IMG/VR virus record: IMGVR_UViG_3300040786_000030 | Location: 120,281-184,280 of that record | DNA length: 64,000 nucleotides | Direction: 5' to 3' (one strand) | From: a virus | Shown here: one piece after another, positions 11,212 to 56,400 of the stretch | Position numbering within the stretch: the stretch's first letter is position 1 | Layout: each line of letters opens with the position of its first letter | The notes under the pieces: model-generated | What the model saw: the letters and a program-made list of their open reading frames with translations, nothing else | Databases searched by the model: none | What the model was told of the DNA's origin: nothing | Program-made: the position numbers and the translations under genes

Positions 11212-12634
11212 ATGAGATATCAAGAAAGGATATATATACAAAACAATAACGATGCAGTTAGAAATAAGGACATATTAAGCTTTAATATGAGTTCTGATAT
11301 GTCAATATTTGAAGGTCCATTATTTAACGTTTCTGGTGCCTCTAAAATCGATTGTACTGGTATTACAAGTTCATATGTTATATCAACAGGTACTACAATA
11401 CCATTAACATTCGTATTCACGGCAAATACTAATAGTTTTACTGCTAATACAACATCATTTAAATATGAAGTTTATAAATTCGATAGTAATTTAACTGCAT
11501 TTACAACGATACCAGTTTATAAATCTAACTTATTAGAATATTCTGGTTTTAGCGGTACAAATAGTACTTATCAGACAATACCTGTAAATCAACTTTTATT
11601 AGATGGAGAATATTTAATAAAAGGTTATTATGAATATTCAAATACTACTGAATACCTAAATAAACTAGGTATAAAAACAGATACATTATTATTTAAAAAT
11701 GGTGTTGAGTATGGTATATATGATAAAATGTAGATTATTATTTTAATGCGATAAAGTCAGCGAGTATACCATTATTTTCGAACAATGGTTCAAACGTTCC
11801 ATTAATTAACTCATTATTCCAACAATTAATTTTCCCAGAAACAATTAGTGCAAATACTATAAATGTAACTGTTGGTTATGTTGGTGCTGTTATTTTAACT
11901 TTAAATGGTGCTGTTTTAGCGCCAACATTAGATTATACTATTGATGGTAGTGTAATCGTTTTAGCTGGAGATGTATCACCTGATGATTTATTAACGTTAG
12001 TTTATACTACGAGTAATGTTAATAATTTATCCAGTGATATACTTTACATTACAACACCTATTGCTAGTGGTTCTACAGATAATCAAGGTAGTAACACATC
12101 ATATTATAATACTACTACTGGTAAATATGAAATATATACTGATACAACACCACTAGAGGGTAATTCAATTTTAGTAATGTTAAATGGTGTTACATTGGCG
12201 AATGGTGGTGACTATTACCAATCAATTTCTAACCCTAAAAGGATAATATTAGAGGTGATTTATTAATTGAGGATATAATAACAATTGTTTATTATCCTAC
12301 TACAACGGTCATTAATGGTTTAATAACGTCAAACCCTATTGTAAGTTGGCGAATAGCTAACTCACCAGAATTAGTAAATGGTAATTTTATATTAGAAGTT
12401 AGTGATAACAATATGTTTAGTAGTTTTATATATACTGGTGTAACGGATTATGTTATCGGTCAGCTAGAATATAACGATAATTTTATTGCTAGTGGGTCAA
12501 TTGGTAGTAAATTATATTATAGGGTAAAAAATGTTAAAGATTATATCACATTTTGTGGTAATATAATTAATAGTACTGTTTACAGTGAAGTAATACCATT
12601 AACAATACAAACTAACGCCATAAATTCATACTAA
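11212..12634 (+). CDS. putative virion structural protein (frameshifted)
   Basis: Fragments 11212-11733 and 12413-12634; repeated 'LNGxxLAxxxDY' beta-rich motif. Confidence 0.45.
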
Positions 12635-12714
12635 AGGTTTACTATTAGATATTTATGACTAAAATATCTGGTATAAAATAAAGTATCTAATATTTATAAT
12701 AAAAACATAAAAAC

Positions 12715-14836
12715 ATGTCATACATAATTAACGGGACAAACCCATTCGTATCGATAAAATTAACTGAAAAGGGCGTGAGCAACTTAGTATGGGTCAACTT
12801 ACGTTTTCACATTGGATTGGTGATTCTGAAATTAACTATAATAGAGAAATAATTGTAGATGCTAATCCAAATGATGTTACATTATCTGCTAGTAGCAAGG
12901 TACTTAGACCATTAGATAAACAACCTAATTGTAAATATTTTATTACACCAATAGGTGCTTCAAGCCCTATCAAATTTTAGATGGTGGTAGTTTAAACGTT
13001 ATAAAAGCTGTTGTTAATAATGAAGCGACTGAAAGAGGTTTCTTTTCAGGGACGACTTATAAAACTTTAACTGGTAGTACTTATTCACCATATTCAACAA
13101 CCTTCTCAAACAGTTACTTAACTGGTGGTACGGTAATGAATGGTTTTACAGCTACAACTAAATTTAATGTTGGTGATTTATTATTAAATTAAATAATAAT
13201 AGTTTATCAGGTGCGCCAGCTGTAAATACTAATACAGTACCAAGACCTAATATTTGGTATAAAATAATTGGTGTTAATAGTACTTCAATAACTGTTGATA
13301 GAAAATTACCTAATTACTCATCACAAAATAGTTACTTATCAGAATTAATTACATATAAAAGTGGTGAGGTTTATGATACAATTGCTACTGGTAATACAAG
13401 CGCATATTGGGATAGTGGTACTTTGTCTTTTGATTCTGCATCTAATATAACGTGTCATGATGTTCCAGTTTGGAATATGAATACTGTTTGGTGTGAAAAT
13501 CTTGCTGGTATAACTGGTTTAACTACAACAAACTTATATGAAGATTACACTAAATTTGGTTCATATCAATATTTGGGTGATAAATCACCATATTTAGATT
13601 ATCCTTGTGGTTCTGACCTAACAAGTACTGCGTCAACATGTAATACTGTTGGTTTAAGTTATGATGATGAAGTATCAAAATCGATATCTATTTTACATTA
13701 TACAAATAACGCTATTTCAAGTCTATATGGGGAATTCTTATATATTGATGCTACAAATAATAAAATAGTTAAATTAATATTTCCAGATTTAATGTACCAT
13801 AGGTCTAAATTTGCTACAACAAGTGGTGTTACCATGGGTATGTCATTTATAGCTACTGGTTCAACAAAATATGTTACAAACACAAATATAGAGTATGTAG
13901 ACTTAATCGAAGACTCAACATATGTTTCAGGAACACCTTTAGTTATTGGTAGAGTATATACTCAATTAAAAACTATTGTAATTCATAATGATGAAATTAT
14001 AGCTGCTCTATCTTACAAATCAAATAGAAACTGGACATTACCAAAATTAGCAGCAACAGTAGCATCACCAAGTGGTGGTACATCTACTGGTATATTATTA
14101 GTTGATAGTACAATTTACTTAACATATTCACTTGAAAGCACAATAGATGGTTTACAAACTAGTCTACCTTGTCAAGATTATGTTAAATTAACAAATACTA
14201 CAAATGCACCTAAAGATATTGCATTTAGAATTAGTCAAACTGATTTATTACCTTTTATGCGTAAAATAGAAGGTGGTTATGATGGTCTAGGATTTTATGC
14301 TGATAAATTTAAATTATTATATCAAATTGTTAGTGATGAAAATACTCGCCCCGACCCAGGCGCTTGGAAATCTTATGATTATACATCCACAGCCATAACT
14401 GGTAATGTTGGTGAAACAATTGACCCTAAAAAATTAGAAATACAAACACCAACAATAACTGGGTTTATGTTAGATACGATTAAAGATTCTACGGCTACAA
14501 TTTTGATTTAACAAAATCATTAAATATGGCGGCAAATTCTTCACCTACAAGTTTACAATTTGGTGATGAACGTTTTTTCTATGGTAATATAAAACATATA
14601 TTGGTGCGACAATTTTCAAAACGATATTTGATATTAGAGTTAACTCTGGATTATTCAACGCAACAACAAATCCAACAAGAAGTAAAGATTTATCAACAAA
14701 CCCACCTAATATTAAAGTGAGTGAAGTTGGGATATACGATATAAATAAAAATTTAGTTTGTATTGGAAAATTAAGCAAACCAGTAGCTTTAATAACTGGT
14801 GATACGATAATGATAGAATTAGCACTAGACTTTTAA
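12715..14836 (+). CDS. baseplate/tail-collar-type structural protein (frameshifted)
   Basis: N-terminal KLTEKGRE..IGDSE; C-terminal VSEVGIYDINKNLVCIGKLSKPV, resembling tail-collar fibre proteins. Confidence 0.55.
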
Positions 14837-14839
14837 AAG

Positions 14840-16045
14840 ATGGGATATAACACAACAGCCGCAACACAAACATTAATAGCTAAGCTTACACCGCTTGGAA
14901 GACAATTATTAGTAACTTCAAATAATACTTTGATAACTAGTTTTAGTCTTGGTGATTCAGATGCTAATTATAACGCACTATTACCTTTAACTACTGGGCA
15001 AATACCAGCAGAATCTGGGGAATTATTAATCAATGGTTTACAAAGTAATAGTACTCAAGTAAACACTAGAATTAAGAGTTTATTAAAATTTGATACAAAT
15101 GGGGCATTACAAAACCAGTTGAATCACAATCAAGTCTTGTGACAAGTGAAACTATCACAAATGGTCAAACATTAATTAGTGGTGCAAATATATCACAAAT
15201 TACTGTAGCTAGGTCAAATTTTTTAACTGATAGTTATGTTAATTTATTTTATTCTTTTGGGCTTCCATTAAATAGTGTCGATGATAATAAATATACTGGT
15301 ACAACATATGTAAATGGTGGTTATTCAGATACTGCTTTAAGCGCTGTAGCTAAAACTAAGATAGTTGTTATCAGTGTTGATACTTCACAATATGGTGAGA
15401 CTATAGATGGTAAATCAATTAAAATATCGTTACCAACATCTGGTGGTACTTATAATATATATAGCACATTCCAAAATAAGGGTATACAAGCAACTGTTGA
15501 GGATGCAAACCTTAGGGAAACATCTACACTTGGTAACCCATTTGGTGATAATGTAGCTTTCTTATTCTCTGACGAGATATTAAAACCAAACGGTGGAAAT
15601 CCATTATTAAGTTGGGGTACTGGCTATGGAACTGTTAAACCTTTTAGTTTAAATAATAAATTGTTATATAATTTACAAACAAATAGTAATATTGGGGTAA
15701 GTGCTGATACAATGGTTGGTGTAGCTTACTTAGATAAGGGTTTAATAGTAATCACTGACCCGACAATAATTGCTAATTATGAATTAGCAACAGGTATGAC
15801 TTCAGGTGTAACAGTAACTCTTAGCAGTGTCTCAACCTCAGTTTTCAAAATATTACATGTATTGCTGGTAGAGGTGAATTTGGAACTTCAACTAATCCAT
15901 CTTTTGGGTTATTAGATAGTCCAAGAATTAGTGAAGTTGGGTTATATGATACTAATGGTAATATAATCGCCATAGCAAAACTGACCGACATATAGTTAAA
16001 AATATCAATGAATTCATAGCTCTTGGTATAAAAATAATGATTTAA
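14840..16045 (+). CDS. baseplate/tail-collar-type structural protein, paralog of the previous gene (frameshifted)
   Basis: KLTPLGRQ..LGDSD N-terminus; ISEVGLYDTNGNIIAIAK C-terminus. Confidence 0.55.
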
Positions 16046-42229: not shown

Positions 42230-43249
42230 ATGAGTAAAAAAATTATTATGATATTCTAGGTGTTAAAAAAGACGCTAACCCTAGTGAGATAAAAAAATCA
42301 TATAGAAAATTAGTTAAAGAATATCATCCTGATGTAAACCCAGATAATAAAGAAGCTGAGGAAAAATTTAAGGAGATATCATCAGCGTATGAGGTTTTAT
42401 CAGATACAGATAAGAAATTAAAGTACGACCAGTTTGGTGATAGTGATGGAAACCAATCTAGAGGCTTTGGCGGTTTTGGTAATGGTTTTGGCGGTTTTGA
42501 CTTCAATTCCAAGAACAAAACCACCACAAAGAGTTGGTTTAAACATGACCCTAATTTTAAAATTGACACTTGAAGAAATCCATAATGGGGTAACTAAAAA
42601 ATTTAAATACAAAAGAAATGATACTTGTAAGACGTGTCATGGTCATGGTGCTATGGACATTACAAATTGTGAGGTATGTAATGGTAATGGTGTTATAAAT
42701 AGAATTATGCAGACACCAATAGGTGTTATACAACAAAGTTTCCCTTGTCATAATTGTCATGGTGTTGGTAGTACGTTTGTTAATAACTGTCTTGACTGTA
42801 ATGGTACTGGTAGTAAAAGTATTGAAGAAATTATCGAAGTTGTATCACCGCCTGGGATTAGGGAAGATAGTGCATTTATTATGCATGGAAAAGGTCAAGC
42901 GATTAAATCTGGTAAGTGTGGTGATTTAATAATTAACGTTAGTGAAATTTCACATGATGTATATGTTAGAAGTGGACATAATTTAAATTTGAATTTAAAG
43001 TTAAACTACCCACAATTAGTGTTGGGTGATAAAATTAGTTTAGATACCATTGATGGAACTAAGATTTTAGTTACTATACCAGAGCATAGTGAAGTCGGTT
43101 CTAATTTAAGAATACCATCTAAGGGTCTTAATATTTTAAAAGGTAGTGGTAGAGGTGATATAATAATAACATTAGATATTACTATACCTAAAGATGTATC
43201 AGATGAACTTAGAAGTATGCTAATAAATTTAAAAGAAAAACTAGAATAA
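42230..43249 (+). CDS. dnaJ: DnaJ chaperone (frameshifted)
   Basis: J-domain YYDILGV...[21 protein letters not shown] region, four CxxCxGxG repeats, C-terminal domain. Confidence 0.95.
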
Positions 43250-43731: not shown

Positions 43732-44172
43732 ACTATTGAGCAAATAGATGGAATTAACCCTAACGCAATAGTGTGGGATGGGTTAGATGAAGCAATAGTT
43801 GGAATGGCAAATAAAGCTGTTAACGGTGAGATAATTATTTTAGATGGCGATGGAGAAGAAGTTATAATTGATTCATCAGATGATGCTTATTTAGAATATG
43901 GTGACGATGTTAATATAGATAGATGGGATAGAGATGAGTTCGGACCAATAGTTGCATATGATATCGATAAAATGATAGAAATTTTAGCTAAAGATATGGA
44001 AGTAGATTTAGATGATTTAGATGAATATGAAACAGAGGATGAAAGAAAATACACTTTGGCTTTAGAGTTTTACGATTACAACACAAATGGTGCTTATGTT
44101 GGTGAATTTACACCGTTACATATTCATGTAAAAAAAATTAAAATAGATAAATATGGGATTAGATTATTATAG
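43729..44172 (+). CDS. acidic hypothetical protein
   Basis: 147 aa; DGLDEAIVG...EFYDYN..GAYVGEFTP, a phage-type motif. Confidence 0.6.
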   Translation: MTIEQIDGINPNAIVWDGLDEAIVGMANKAVNGEIIILDGDGEEVIIDSSDDAYLEYGDDVNIDRWDRDEFGPIVAYDIDKMIEILAKDMEVDLDDLDEYETEDERKYTLALEFYDYNTNGAYVGEFTPLHIHVKKIKIDKYGIRLL

Positions 44173-44856
44173 TGAGTTTCAAAACTACGCAATAAAACAC
44201 ATGGGTATGAGTGGAATGGAATTCTACCAATGGGAGCAATTACAAAACACAATTTACTCAAACGTAAGTGTTCAGTCAAGTTTAACACCTTATATCTTAG
44301 AAGAAAGAGAATTAAGGGTAACGCAAATGGATATCTTTTCACGTTTGATGATGGATAGGATTATTTGGTTAGCTGGTCCTGTTAACGATAGAATGAGCAC
44401 AGTTGTTCAAGCGCAATTATTATTTTTAGATAATTTAGATAACAAAGATATTACTTTTCATGTTGATTCACCTGGTGGGTCTGTTAAATCTGGTCTTTCA
44501 ATTGTTGACCAAATGAATTATGTTAAATCTGACATTATTACGATAAATACAGGTATGGCTGCAAGCATGGGTAGTATATTATTAGGTGCTGGTACCAAGG
44601 TAAGCGATTTAGCCTACCATCTAGTAGGGTAATGTTACATCAAGTATCAACAGGTGCTTCGGGTAATATTCAAGATATTAGACGCTCAATTGCTGAGGGT
44701 GAAAAATACAATACAAAATTATTTGATTTATTAGGTGATTATTGTGGTAAATCACGTGAACAAGTATTAGAAGATGCTAATCGTGATTTATGGTTAGATG
44801 CTGAAGAAGCAAAAGCTTACGGTATAATCGATGGTGTTATAACAAAAAGAAAATAG
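44153..44856 (+). CDS. clpP: ATP-dependent Clp protease proteolytic subunit (one frameshift)
   Basis: LTPYILEER..QMDIFSRLMMDRII, QAQLLFL, DSPGGSV, GMAASMG, MLHQ, RDLWLDAEEAKAYGIID. Confidence 0.95.
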
Positions 44857-45336: not shown

Positions 45337-45431
45337 AATTATCAAAATTAACTCACCTCCACGTGGTGATAATTGGAAACAGATAAAGCTGGCAAAGAAG
45401 TTAATAAAAGTGGAGATATTCGGTTTTCTAA

Positions 45432-47069: not shown

Positions 47070-47126
47070 TGGTAAAAGAATCAGTTCAGCAATTAAAACT
47101 TATAAAGTAAAAAATGATTCTGACCA
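47070..47126 (+). ncRNA. structured ncRNA, CAGCAA family copy 3 (short)
   Basis: TGGT..AGAATCA-GTTCAGCAA...TGATTCT-G-ACCA. Confidence 0.6.
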
Positions 47127-47132
47127 AATAAA

Positions 47133-47193
47133 TTACTATTTGCACCGATATGTGCGACACTGAAAAGTGAGAGGTGTAACCCCTTTATAGTAA
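47133..47193 (+). tRNA. degenerate tRNA-like element (Phe-like loop)
   Basis: TTACTAT/ATAGTAA acceptor, GCAC/GTGC D stem, CAC-TGAAAA-GTG, non-canonical T arm. Confidence 0.35.
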
Positions 47194-47450: not shown

Positions 47451-47513
47451 AGAATAGTTACAGCAAATAAACAAAACTTTAAATCTTAATTAAACTAAAA
47501 ACATACTATTCTG
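47451..47513 (+). ncRNA. structured ncRNA, CAGCAA family copy 4 (short)
   Basis: AGAATAGT-TACAGCAA...TTTAA-ATCTTAA-TTAAA...ACTATTCT-G; terminator at about 47521-47548. Confidence 0.6.
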
Positions 47514-47576
47514 AAACACAAATCCTCACTCAAAAGTGGGGATTTTTATAATAATAAAGACTAAAACAAGTAAAAA

Positions 47577-48255
47577 ATGAAAACAATTCATTTAGAAATC
47601 AGAGATGGTAACGGTGGGTCCGATGCAAAGCTATTAGTAACACAAATGCAAGACATTTACACTAAAACAGCTAAAATTAACAATCTAGAATGTTCAATAG
47701 TTGACGTTAGAGATGGTTTTGTTCATCTATGTCTTTAGCGGTTCTGACCCAAAAAAATATTTAATAATGAACAAGGTGTGCATTCTTGGCATCGAGTCCC
47801 ACCAACAGAAAAAAAAAGGTAGAGTTCATACAAGCTCCATAACAGTTGTTATTTTAGAAGATAATAACTATAAAGAGAAAAACCTTTCAACTAATGAAGT
47901 TAAAATCGAAACAACTAGAGGTCAAGGTCCAGGTGGTCAGCATCGGAATACCACAGATTCAACGGTTGTAATAACTCATGAATCCACAGGTATCAAAGTT
48001 GTTAGGAATGGAAGATGTCAACATAAGAACAAAGCTGAGGCTTTAATTGAATTAACCAAAAGAGTTAATGAATTTTATAGATGTGGACATAATTCTATCG
48101 ACATTGAACATCGAAGAGGTCAGATAGGTAATGGTGAAAGAAGTGATAAACGAAGAACATATCGTGTAAAAGATAATTCAGTCAGTGACCATATAACAAA
48201 CAAAACAGCGTCACTAAAAGATATACTTAGAGGTAAAATAGAATTATTATCATAA
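47577..48255 (+). CDS. RF1-like class I peptide chain release factor (domains 2-4 only), with a candidate programmed +1 frameshift
   Basis: LEIRDGNGGSDA; EQGVH.WHRVPPTEKKGRVHTS (RF1-type PxT); GPGGQHRNTTDS; GERSDKRRTY; CTT TAG C at 47733-47739. Confidence 0.85.
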
Positions 48256-48720
48256 TTAAATTCCCCAATTGGGGAATTTTTTATTTAAAAAGTTAGAATA
48301 TTTAAATAAATAAATGTATCTTTGCTTTATGATAAATATGTTATAGATATGGGTATGTTTGATTTTTTAATAAATAGTAATAAAAAGCTAAGGTTGGTAT
48401 AGAATATATCTATCTATCAAATACAGCTTGGGTAGGTGGACTGAAAACCAGTCAAATATGGGTCAATTATGGTAGATGTTATTAAACTACCTAATGATTC
48501 TTTTGAGTTTACCGATAAATTGAGTGGAATTAGATATACAACTAATTATGGGTGGTCTTTAGCTGAAAACACACCAGAGAATATAATGAGTATTAATGAT
48601 TATTTAGTATCTAATGCTAAATTAGAAATATTAGAAAGAAGTACAAGATTATTACGTAAGAAAATAAATGACTTAAATGGTCCTAGTAAAATAAATAATA
48701 ACGATTTAAAATAGAAAAAT

Positions 48721-50625: not shown

Positions 50626-50694
50626 GGCGAGGTAATCAAATGGTAGGTACAGTTTTGAAAGACTGGTATGTTGGTTCGAATCCAGCCCTCGCCT
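50626..50694 (+). tRNA. tRNA of undetermined identity (6-nt loop TTGAAA)
   Basis: GGCGAGG/CCTCGCC acceptor, CAGTT/GACTG stem, canonical T arm; possible homopolymer deletion. Confidence 0.6.
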
Positions 50695-50730
50695 CTGATA
50701 ATAATAATAATAATTTAAAAAATAGAAACT

Positions 50731-51819: not shown

Positions 51820-53772
51820 ATGAAATTGTTAATTAAAAAATTACTTAGAGAAAACATACAGTTAGCTGATAAACTTTATTTTAATCAAAATAAATTATCA
51901 CCACAAGCTAGAGAGCTTATCCTTAGAATAACTAATGGTGACCCCTATACTAAACTAATAACTGATATGTACTATTATCAATTATTTAAAAGTCATAAAA
52001 TGGATAGTTCTGCTATGGCTGGTGCTGACCCAAATTATAAAGAAAGTGAAACTCCTGAATCTGATATTTTAGCTATGCAAGATATGAAAGATATTAAAGG
52101 TTTATATAATATATTAAAACATATAACAAAAATATTTTCCCAATAAAGAGTTTCAATATCAATGGTGTTGATGACATTGGTACTTTTATGCGCACATTGA
52201 AAAATAGAGAAAAGATAATACAAACTTTAAATAGTTTACCATCAATAGCTATTAGGAATATGAAAAATGATATTCGACAAGAAAGAGATTTTAGCGAAAC
52301 TAAAGATTATATGCAAGAACTAGACTATTTTCAAGGGTTATTTAGTCAATTGGGTAATAGAGATGTTGAATTAAGAAAAAATATTGAAAAGAAAATGTTT
52401 AGGTCTAATATTACGTTAGAAGATTTATTAGATTTTGCACAAGAAAAGGAAAACTTATTAGGTGGTGTAGAATTCACAAAGCAAAAGATAATCGAAATTG
52501 TTAAAGAAGAAAATAATGAATACGATGAACTTAAAATAAAATTTAATAAGGGTGATGTTATGGTGATAGAAGTATCTGGACCTAACGGAATAAAAAAAAT
52601 TGGATGTAATTCATTGTGGTGTTTTACATATGGTAGAAATGGGGCGATGAATTATAATGACTGGTATAATTATTCTACAAATGACTTAGTATATGTTATA
52701 ATTGATTTTAAAGAACCAACTGATTCGCCAGACTTTATGCACGTTCTAATTAAACCTTTAATGGTTGATTACTCGGTTGTTGGTAGTGATGGTGACGATG
52801 TTTTATTTAATATGGCAAATAGTGGTGAGGAAGAACCTAATTCCATAATTCAACATTATTTTGACTTTGATTTCGCTAAAGACTTATGAATTTTGGTGTC
52901 AAAACCAGAGAGAACCCCAAAACCTAAAAAAAATAGAACAGACCCAAATCAATTATCGATTGACTTTAACCAACCAGCTGAAATAAACGAATATGATGAT
53001 GAAGAAGATGACTACGAAGATGACGAAGATGAATATTATTATGGTGATGAAGAACAATATTTTAAACCTAAATTAGATGCTGATGTTAAAGCAAATAGTT
53101 CTAGATATGAAGGTAGAAACGTTGTTTGGTATGGTTCTATTGGTAATATGATTGTTTTAACTAGAGATGAAGTAGATGGTATGACTGGTAATATCTACGA
53201 TGAGGAAAAATTAGCTTATTTAACCAAACTAATACGTGATTACCCTGAAAAGGTTGAGTTAGAATGTTCTTACGCTCACGGTCATGTTATTAATCTTATA
53301 GATATTAAAGAAGAATTAGAATCATTTTATAATGATAGATTTGTTGTTGAATACGATGGGCATGAAGAACCCAACCGTACTGGTGATGAAGAACTTGATG
53401 AATATATTGGTAAAGACCTTGATAATAATTATTGGTATAATTTAGATTATGATAATGATAATATTGAACCATTTTTTTGAAAAATAGAACAAGTGTCGCT
53501 CAAGGTAAAAGTGTAGATGAATTAACATTAGAGTTTAAACAATTAAACCCAACAGAAAATGAAATCGATACCTTTAAAGAATTTATTAATATGGAGAACA
53601 AATTAAAAGATGCTCAAGCTAATGATGAGGGTGATTTTAATAAATTTAAAGTACAATTAGAGATGGTCACCATAGAGTATTCGCAGCCTTAATTCAGGTG
53701 AAAGATATGTTTGTGTTGATTTAGTTGATGATGGTATTAAAAAATATAAAGGGTATTATAATTTAGTTAAAT
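51820..53772 (+). CDS. large acidic hypothetical protein (frameshifted)
   Basis: Fragments 51820-52146, 52188-52889, 52893-53480 and 53477-53692; GCNSLWCF motif. Confidence 0.5.
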
Positions 53773-53773
53773 A

Positions 53774-55197
53774 ATGGAAAATTTTATAAAAAAATTACTA
53801 AGAGAGTCTTTGATTAATGAAGGTGTAAGTGATATTACATATCATTTTACTAACACCTATAAACTTGATGAGATTCTAAAACAAATAAGATTAATTTATC
53901 AGCAGCTTTTGGTTCACCTTCTGATAATGAGATAAATAAAAATAAATTATTTTTCTTATCTACTACTAGTTCAAGAAATTCTGATATTGGATACGCTGCC
54001 TCATTACCTAAAGATAATATGGTTAGAATAACCTTAAATGGAAGGTTATTAAACCAGAATAACAAATCTACTAGGGTTGACTATTGGCAAAGACCTAAAG
54101 ACCCTAGAAACAAGCTCTATAACCCAAATGATGTGCCTACAACTGGTAAAGACTTCTATAAAAAGTATCTAGACAAGATGAATTAGAAGATAGGTTTATT
54201 AGTGATAAAATGAGATTAAACCAGCTAATAAATATATAATATCTATTGAAATTTTAGTGATAATAATATGGGTAAGTTGAAATATTTAAGTGATAATCTA
54301 AACATACCATTTTCGTTTATGATAATATAAATTATTTTAATGGTTCAGTTAAGAATAAAGCTATTGAAGTTGCTTCTGATAGTATACCTAATGATGTTGA
54401 AAAACGTAGAGGTTATCTTGATACTAATATTATTGCATATTTAGTTTTAGAGATGATAAATTAAGAGCTAAAATATTTAATGATATACAAGCTTTGATAT
54501 TGATATTGATTGGGTTAAAAATAAGGTTGATGATAAATGATAAATTAAATTATTATTTACGAAATGGAAGTGAATTTTATATAAATGATTTTGCGAGCAG
54601 TATGAGTGCTGATGTACATAATATGAGGTCGAGTTCAAATGAATTTGATAGATACCTAATAAAAGAATTGGGTATGGATATGAAAAGGAATAATGTAAAC
54701 TCAATCAAGGGTTATTTAAATTATAAAGTTTGAAGGGTAAAAAACTCAAAATGATTATAATAAAGAGCTAAACCAAAAATTTATGAACTTTATTGAAGAT
54801 AATTTTAAAGAACAAATTAGCAACTATACAAATTACTCTTTTGATGCTGATGGTGTTGAATATGAAAATATTTTAGATTATAAACCAATTATGGATTTAT
54901 TTAATAACTTTTAATAAAACTAAAAAAATATGTTTCAGATTATATGTTAACTAATGATGATATGTATAGATTAAAATATGTTTTAGATAGCTCACATATT
55001 AAAGAAACTGTAAATATAAGCAAACCTGAAATCAATAGTATACTAGATAATATTGATTTTATGGTAGTAAATTTACTGCCGATGATGTTAAAGCTATATT
55101 ATATTATATTGTAAGTGATTTTAGTAATTATGCATATGATGAACTAGAACAAGCTAAAAAGAATTTAATGAACAATTCACATAAAATATTTGTTTAA
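53774..55197 (+). CDS. hypothetical protein (frameshifted)
   Basis: ITYHF..INLS..FFLSTTSSR..VDYWQ..DELEDR coding-like stretch. Confidence 0.4.
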
Positions 55198-55224
55198 TCA
55201 ATAATTTAGTAATATCTTTGTTGC

Positions 55225-56400
55225 ATGAAAAATAAGATAGAACAAATATTAGGTGAAGGATTAGTTATTGGTAAACGAATTAAATTTGATTTATCAATAC
55301 CTGAAGATATTAGTGAGTTAAACCATATCTTTAAAAGAAATGGTTTTGAACTATTTATTGTTGGTGGTGCTATACGTGATGCTTTATTAGGTAAATCACC
55401 AAAAGATTACGATTTAGCTACCAATGCTTTACCTGACAAGGTTGAAGAAATGATGAATACAAACAACATTAGAACTATAGCTACTGGTAAAGCATTTGGT
55501 GTTATTAATGTATTTACCAACCAAGGGGAATACGAAATAGCAACCTTTAGACATGATATTGGCTCTGATGGTAGAAGACCAGATAGTGTTAAATTTACTA
55601 ATATTGAAGGGATGTTAAAAGACGGACCTCACTATCAATGCACTTTTACGATATTGAGAAAGGTGAGATTGTTGACCTTGTTGGTGGTATTAATGATATT
55701 AAAATGGTGTTGTTAGAACGGTTGGTTTAGCTGAAGATAGATTTGGTGAAGATAGACTTCGTATTCTTAGAGCAATTAGATTTGCTGCTAGGTTTGGAAG
55801 TGAATTAGAGACAAAACTGATATAGCGTTACAAAAAAATGCAAATCTTGAAGGTATTTCCAGTGAACGTATTAGAGATGAATTCATCAAGGGTATTAAAT
55901 CGGCTAAATCAACATCAGCTTTTTTAATGTTGAATGATAAATACGAATTGTTTGATTGGATATTCCCAGACTTAAAATTGTCAAGAGTATGTTTAATAGA
56001 GGTGATGATTATATGTTTAATGATTACTTAGTTGTTTTAGCTAGGTTATTAAAAAACAATACCGTTGAAACTATTAGAGAAAAACTAAATATTTTAAGTT
56101 ATTCTACTACAGAAATTAAAGGTATTATATTCTTAGTTACGTTATTAAAATTAGATTCTGATAATGCGTATTCCTGAAAAATCCCATTTAAAATCTGGTA
56201 TTAGTAATAACCAAATTAGAGATTTTGGTTCAAGTGAAGGTATTCCATCTCAATTGCTAGATGCTTTTGAGGAATTTACATTAACAGTTTCTGGGTCAGA
56301 AATTATGTTTGATTTTAATTTAAAGCCTGGTAAAATGTGGGTGAATTGATGCAAAAAATAGAAACAGAAAACTTTAACAAAATATTAAAACCTTATCTAG
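55225..56400 (+). CDS. CCA-adding enzyme / poly(A) polymerase family nucleotidyltransferase (frameshifted)
   Basis: FIVGGAIRDALLGKSPKDYDLATNA, EIATFR, DLTINA, RFGEDRLRILRAIRF, ISSERIRDE. Confidence 0.9.

Follow-up and report, generated by a model that had tools for sequence, protein, structure and literature searches.

A shortened RF1-type release factor gene of a phage, gated by a conserved CUU UAG C +1 shift site

Results

The release factor gene and its assembly

The window (the whole 64,000-nucleotide stretch analysed, from IMG/VR record IMGVR_UViG_3300040786_000030) carries a release factor gene that is interrupted early by a stop codon. In window coordinates, the features of the locus are:

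47520..47548, + strand: putative terminator-like hairpin and T run, about 30 nt 5' of the start codon, seen on assembly L001
47577..48255, + strand: whole release factor gene, 679 nt, 225 amino acids, domains 2-4, needing one +1 shift
47577..47738, + strand: frame-0 ORF1, 53 codons plus TAG, with the GG tip of the decoding helix at 47613-47618
47730..47739, + strand: shift signal TGT CTT TAG C, comprising a Cys codon, the CUU-U slippery run, UAG, and the +4 C
47737..48255, + strand: +1-frame ORF2, ending in TAA, with PPT at 47799-47807 and GGQ at 47932-47940
47751..47757, + strand: assembly error, A7 against A8 in L001, L002, and the X1 contig
47809..47817, + strand: assembly error, A9 against A8 in L001, L002, and the X1 contig
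48258..48284, + strand: terminator-like hairpin directly 3' of the gene, seen on L001
49801..49873, + strand: tRNA with a CUA (amber) anticodon, near the gene, with no tie to the UAG gate

As the first-pass annotation had read it, the frame opening at ATG 47577 runs for 53 codons and ends at TGT CTT TAG C (CTT at 47733-47735, TAG at 47736-47738, and C at 47739). The same annotation had the release factor core continuing in the +1 frame; the core does resume one base later, but in the window it does not lie wholly in that frame: homopolymer errors at 47751 and 47809 return the segment NEQGVH..RVPPTE to frame 0. Once both A-run errors are set aside and one +1 shift is made, the 225 amino acid product is obtained. 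Pfam places PCRF on the 5' piece of the gene and RF-1 on the 3' piece.

An artefact had to be taken seriously from the outset because the alignment of the window with L001 contains 85 gap bases in 8,580 columns and the longest ORF of the 193-kb virus record is 444 codons; the homopolymer indel rate in the window is about one per 100 bases. L001 and L002 are separate assemblies of the window's phage, and the depth-75 contig of run X1 possibly derives from the window's own sample and is therefore not independent. Both A runs are A8 in all three. At the TTT run at 47734-47736, where a single T fewer (CTTAGC) would have given a continuous ORF, none of the three differs from the window, and CTTTAGC is kept throughout. 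Other split genes of the window record, e.g., ClpP (44153-44856) and DnaJ (42434-43249), are presumed to be errors unless other assemblies confirm them.

Conservation of the shift site and the change of frame

All 14 distinct genes that shift at this codon read TG(T/C) CTT TAG C, at pairwise nucleotide identities of 54-97% (median 66%) over their first 282 nt. No homolog in this set lacks the stop, and retention of the site in genes this divergent excludes a sequencing artefact; together with L001, L002, and the X1 contig, it rules out an error in the TTT run. Elsewhere in the same 14 genes, only 28 of 188 Leu residues are encoded by CTT and 20 of 158 Ser residues by AGC; at the site, both codons occur in 14 of 14. 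A scan of viral contigs in which the stop was left free returned 22 loci; 13 were release factors, and TAG was the stop in all 13. At the protein level, 36 fragments out of 120 database proteins cross the junction in the +1 frame; it reads x-F-S in 35, implying UAG, and A-F-D in one, implying UGA. The Cys codon ahead of CUU is invariant, including in one gene that shifts two codons earlier, and may be part of the shift signal.

The frame of selection changes at the site. Upstream, the wobble peak in variability falls at codon position 3 (0.37), and downstream, it falls one base later (0.38). For ORF1, pN/pS is 0.39 in frame 0 versus 0.98 in +1; for ORF2, it is 0.33 in +1 versus 1.62 in frame 0. 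An internal restart yielding two chains was rejected, as the 14 genes share no internal start: a +1-frame ATG lies upstream of the site in four, and three have no ATG, GTG, or TTG there. Frame 0 beyond the UAG meets its next stop after 2-28 codons in the 14 genes. No 3' stimulatory RNA structure was found in them (z from -1.5 to +1.3), and no Rfam family matched at gathering score over the window gene.

The CTT TAG C site is thus real and under selection, and the gate is almost certainly programmed recoding. Site, conservation, and frame switch together bear out the earlier proposal of a prfB-style +1 shifty stop in an RF1-type factor.

Shine-Dalgarno (SD) sequences and the probable host

The first-pass annotation saw no internal SD, and an SD-like 4-mer is present upstream of the window-type site in none of the 13 genes scored. 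Such 4-mers precede the shift in 76 of 90 genes at site 31 and in 8 of 8 at site 41. Only 2-5% of start codons in three genomes of the clade have an SD, and 56-68% have A at -3. Judged from this SD usage, the host is likely to be a Bacteroidia-type bacterium with SD-blind ribosomes, and the missing SD fits such a host. The prfB shift of Flavobacterium is reported, in the available part of the source, to proceed at about 7% with or without an SD (PMC10798248). The host marker bS21 was found in none of five genomes.

The product is a shortened RF1-derived factor

A family profile built from 63 sequences scores 209 bits against E. coli RF1 (residues 111-340), 147 against RF2, and no more than 81 against PrfH. 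All NCBIfam cut-offs were missed (prfA, 180 bits versus 423; prfB, 108 versus 370; prfH, 76 versus 167). The structure of an in-frame relative, L003, modelled with UGA read as Trp (pLDDT 86.6), superimposes on ribosome-bound RF1 with a TM score of 0.91. The window factor retains PPT (Pro first, Thr third), the GG tip, and GGQ, and the RF1 assignment made at first pass is upheld by these motifs and by the best profile match. Domain 1 had also been noted as missing: the start codon lies six codons ahead of the first strand, and the profile match begins at RF1 residue 111. The gene product is a shortened RF1-derived class I release factor. RF1 truncated of domain 1 keeps peptide release and codon specificity but does not engage RF3, according to the available text of PMC1586002.

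An RF1-like decoding motif, with Pro first and Thr third, predicts reading of UAA and UAG only. In RF1, the Gln that precedes the PxT loop is the third-base reader; most relatives have Gln there, and the window protein has His. The loop around RF2 170-177 is six residues shorter in the family, and basic residues follow PPTE. In RF2, the substitutions E167K, E172K, and K177R raised UAG release 30-40-fold (PMC7530605, available in part).

The family forms a branch separate from full-length RF1 on a quick tree for which some genes were missed in parsing. In two bacterial genomes, the short factor is additional to three other RF-1-domain genes, two of which, with strong matches, are taken to be RF1 and RF2. 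No factor of the eRF1/aRF1 type was seen: all matches were bacterial-type class I factors or mitochondrial relatives.

Gates across the family

Examination of 427 loci (60 without a release factor and eight without a 5' end) yielded 270 distinct parsed genes, 76 of them full-length RF1 and 194 short; removal of L207, an RF1 at a contig edge, left 193 short relatives. An early gate is present in 188, and five are open. The gates comprise 75 in-frame UGA (once in 45 genes, twice in 30), 77 CUU-UGA, 33 CUU-UAG, and three CUU-UAA, counts in which the pattern scans used enrich for shifts. Before those scans, 113 of 117 genes were already gated (73 in-frame UGA, 22 CUU UGA, and 18 CUU UAG, with four open). 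UGA is the only gate in 152 of the 188, with the same PPT loop; three CUU UAG genes (L015, L129, and L329) carry an additional in-frame UGA. As a control, 80 GTDB matches gave 76 uninterrupted full-length RF1 genes, one truncated at the edge of its contig, and three short CUU UGA genes.

The window assembly is too error-prone for a test of the genetic code, which was made in three relatives instead. Long uninterrupted ORFs are found under table 11 in G001, G002, and G004, and the proteins of G004 showed no internal stops against those of G001 and G002 in 32,102 and 33,661 aligned residues, respectively, with about 300 Trp-Trp pairs in each comparison. The in-frame UGA is thus specific to this gene, and genome-wide code 4 or 15 in the relatives was rejected. 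The stretch between two UGAs has a pN/pS of 0.45. Trp stands at a gate position in every one of the 45 full-length database proteins that were parsed; they are likely code-4 gene calls on short contigs.

Across the family, the stop is exchangeable. At site 31, the one used most often, 70 of 90 genes have UGA, 17 UAG, and three UAA, and the decoding loop is identical in the UAG and UGA genes. Stop identity changed 17 times on a FastTree tree versus 18.8 times for shuffled labels, although some rows of this tree are truncated and a poorly resolved tree would likewise obscure a signal. With the gate columns removed, the window's own clade (15 UAG-shift and 41 UGA-readthrough genes) required nine changes, and a single UAG-shift clade was rejected (p-AU 0.0002); this tree came from a quick search and includes a different-site gene, L056, and recombination could give equal mixing. 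Note that UAG is nevertheless near-fixed at the window's own site (14 of 14 in DNA, and 35 of 36 as implied by database fragments). The residue that follows is Ser or Thr in 29 of 35 in-frame relatives, and the near-fixation may reflect RF1 sensing, a founder effect, or a preference for Ser/Thr.

These observations divide the proposal, made at first pass, of a mirror-image RF1 autoregulation with a stop matching the specificity of the factor itself. Because PPT and the GG helix tip are kept, it is plausible that the product feeds back at UAG, and for the window gene, we consider this likely; given the near-fixation of UAG, the mirror-image reading may hold for the window's lineage. As a family rule, the match fails: 152 of 188 genes use UGA only, and at site 31, stop identity swaps as if at random with the loop unchanged. 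A codon-specific autoregulated factor keeps its cognate stop, and the short RF1 family does not.

Neighbouring tRNAs, RNA elements, and mobile DNA

The amber tRNA was rejected as a switch for the UAG gate. In the clade, 21 of 33 loci have it, with flanks of unequal length: 6 of 11 where the gate is a UAG shift and 15 of 22 where it is UGA readthrough, so it has no link to gate type. The complete genome G004 lacks it despite carrying a UAG gate, and amber readthrough in frame 0 would end within the 2-28 codons given above, which also argues against such a role. The tRNA is kept although the three tested genomes use the standard code. L308 has a 1,093-codon frame (12253-15535) with a single TAG at codon 621. 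An opal tRNA was likewise set aside, occurring in G002 alone of three genomes. A tRNA-like gene with a 6-nt anticodon loop lies at 50626-50695 in the window (L001 5958-6027), where relatives have tRNA-Cys(GCA); G001 and G004 likewise carry a '(ga)' tRNA.

Among 50 clade genes, 29 have a hairpin of -6 kcal/mol or better, followed by a T run, upstream. A further, conserved RNA element lies beside tRNA-Met genes (window 47452-47513 and 47078-47136), with 45 distinct matches in 29 loci and two copies each in G000, G001, G002, and G004. It consists of a short stem, GAATNN..NNATTC-TG, around (T/A)CAGCAA and an A-rich loop; the two stem positions that the pattern leaves unspecified are paired in 45 of 45 and 43 of 45 matches, where about 46% is expected. 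Its best Rfam match, Dictyostelium Class I RNA, scores 23.6 bits, below the 41.5 cut-off. The 3' arm in L001 (ATG CTA TTC TGA) is a three-codon mini-ORF, whose ATG is absent from the window and many relatives. Directly 3' of the tmRNA gene is an HDV-like ribozyme (RF02682, 46.2 bits, above cut-off; L001 621-689, approximately window 45340-45410), which may process the tmRNA 3' end.

At L014 3977-8786 (G001 51900-55900), ORFs that we take from their motifs to be HNH-like flank the release factor gene, and 3 kb on lies the 3' half of a second allele, beginning at GGQ; L142 and L180 also start near GGQ. The L014 arrangement looks like a mobile cassette replacing the release factor gene. In the cultured strain Novimethylophilus kurashikiensis La2-4 (L189, 1542-3755 and 6745-7239), a short CUU UGA factor lies beside a kinase-phosphatase-RNA-ligase-like gene and Pth2, a translation-repair neighbourhood.

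Comparison with known systems

One of the two closest parallels is bacterial prfB, which encodes RF2 and is autoregulated through a +1 frameshift at SD-CUU-UGA-C: both have a CUUU slippery run, an A-site stop, a +4 C, and a +1 shift early in a class I factor gene, and SD-less prfB shift sites are known in Flavobacteriales (PMC10798248). The window factor, however, is RF1-type (PPT, not SPF), is without domain 1, and is phage-borne; its stop is UAG, its site lies within the decoding domain and has the invariant Cys codon before CUU, and its relatives use in-frame UGA instead. Of 8,164 prfB sites, 98.6% have one stop type, named as TGA, with TAG at 0, in the available text of PMC12421855.

Mimivirus R726 combines UGA readthrough with CUU UAG C, and Megavirus mg280 shifts +1 at CUU UAA C after UGA readthrough (PMC3521657, available in part). 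These factors are also virus-encoded, R726 shares CUU UAG C with the window, and L015, L129, and L329 have the same order of two gates. R726, however, is of the eRF1/aRF1 type, without similarity to bacterial release factors, whereas the window factor derives from bacterial RF1, and the likeness is therefore convergent.

With RF1 (prfA), the window family shares the fold of domains 2-4, PxT, the GG tip, GGQ, and its best sequence and structure matches; it differs in the missing domain 1, the six-residue loop deletion, the interrupted gene, and the separate branch. No programmed shift in prfA is known from the available portions of PMC12421855 and PMC5009743. PrfH (RFH) is also a class I factor without domain 1, extra to RF1 and RF2, but has SXY and GP (as defined in the accessible part of PMC1586002) where the window factor has PxT and GG and is stop-gated. 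An rtcB gene upstream, as with PrfH, was found in none of five genomes, two of them at least 90% complete. The code-change modules of Jade phages likewise place a phage RF1-like gene and suppressor tRNAs in one genome. In TGA-recoded Jade phages, recoding affects the genome and the module itself keeps the standard code, according to the available part of 10.1101/2021.08.26.457843, whereas the genomes of the window's relatives use the standard code and the factor gene alone is gated.

Discussion

The reading that we favour, at roughly even odds of being correct, is that the gate is a termination-shortage feedback device on a factor that is predicted to act at UAG and probably at all stops. By analogy with prfB, slippage would compete with termination: when termination at UAG is slow, the P-site tRNA-Leu would slip from CUU to UUU, giving the whole factor, and when release factor is ample, only the 53 amino acid peptide would be made. 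Product and host RF1 would together close the loop at UAG, and SD-blind Bacteroidia-type host ribosomes would make an SD unneeded. If the product also terminated at all three stops, which is the weakest step, then every gate type would be autoregulatory. The phage could thereby top up termination when host RF1 or RF2 is short, without RF3 recycling.

A broader claim, which we put somewhat below even, is that the family represents a single bacterial-type factor reading all three stops, present in large phages and some bacterial chromosomes, with interchangeable autoregulatory gates (CUU-UAG/UGA/UAA and in-frame UGA), the window being an SD-free form with UGY-CUU-UAG-C as a new signal. Reading of all three stops is indirectly supported by the free exchange of stops, the R726-like double gates, and the family's changes in a loop in which RF2 substitutions relax specificity.

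Alternatively, the factor is RF1-specific (UAA/UAG), so that the UAG gate is mirror-image autoregulation shared with host RF1 and the UGA gates of relatives sense host RF2. We regard this as rather unlikely. The PPT motif, the GG tip, and the preference of the profile for RF1 over RF2 (209 versus 147 bits) point that way, as does near-fixed UAG at the window's site; in addition, RF1 is the dominant factor in Flavobacterium, on the available text of PMC10798248, and TAA, which RF1 reads, ends most phage ORFs. Set against this, the stop is exchanged with no phylogenetic signal and no accompanying change in the loop, UGA is the only gate in 152 of 188 genes, and an RF1-only product would do nothing for the UGA shortage that those gates would sense. 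The Ser/Thr at the next residue (29 of 35) moreover gives a protein-level reason for AGC, and with it for TAG.

It is improbable that the gate is a fixed damper, insensitive to release factor level, that limits a potentially toxic product to a few percent. Any leaky stop would do for that purpose, which matches the mixed types and positions of the gates, and the 30 double UGA gates and the terminator-like hairpin just 5' of the gene would also suit it; weak starts or promoters, however, would be a simpler way, and 188 of 193 genes employ a stop codon, the sole signal that competes with release factors. Slightly less probable again is a role in codon-independent ribosome rescue, in the manner of PrfH or ArfB, triggered by failure of normal termination: the absence of domain 1 as in PrfH, the nearby tmRNA, and the Novimethylophilus relative adjoining a Pnkp/RNA-ligase-like gene and Pth2 would suit it, but GG and PxT are kept rather than the GP and SXY of PrfH, the PrfH score is 76 versus a cut-off of 167, and RtcB is found in 0 of 5 genomes. 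A sequencing error, a pseudogene, or two separately started polypeptides can be dismissed as very improbable, despite the window's indel rate and a +1-frame ATG upstream of the site in its phage, since other assemblies and 14 divergent genes retain the site, selection is purifying on both sides of it, and that ATG is found in only 4 of 14.

We found no description of a gated short RF1 family in the full-text literature, a search that leaves most subscription journals uncovered. Phage RF1/RF2, rescue factors, or release factor recoding are mentioned, and a gated short RF1 is not, in the available parts of PMC5009743, PMC6514570, PMC7162821, PMC7824862, and 10.1101/2021.08.26.457843; an in-frame UAG counterpart for RF1 is called unknown in that of PMC5009743, and that of PMC12421855 has no programmed recoding in prfA. 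Programmed recoding has thus been thought absent from RF1-type genes, and an RF1-derived family has it almost universally. A practical consequence is that gene callers fragment the gated genes or assign them code 4, which may generate false calls of recoded phages. The site itself offers a naturally occurring +1 shift signal without an SD, and a way to follow termination capacity while a phage infects its host. If it is true that the factor reads all three stops, the question of why bacteria keep two release factors would become testable.
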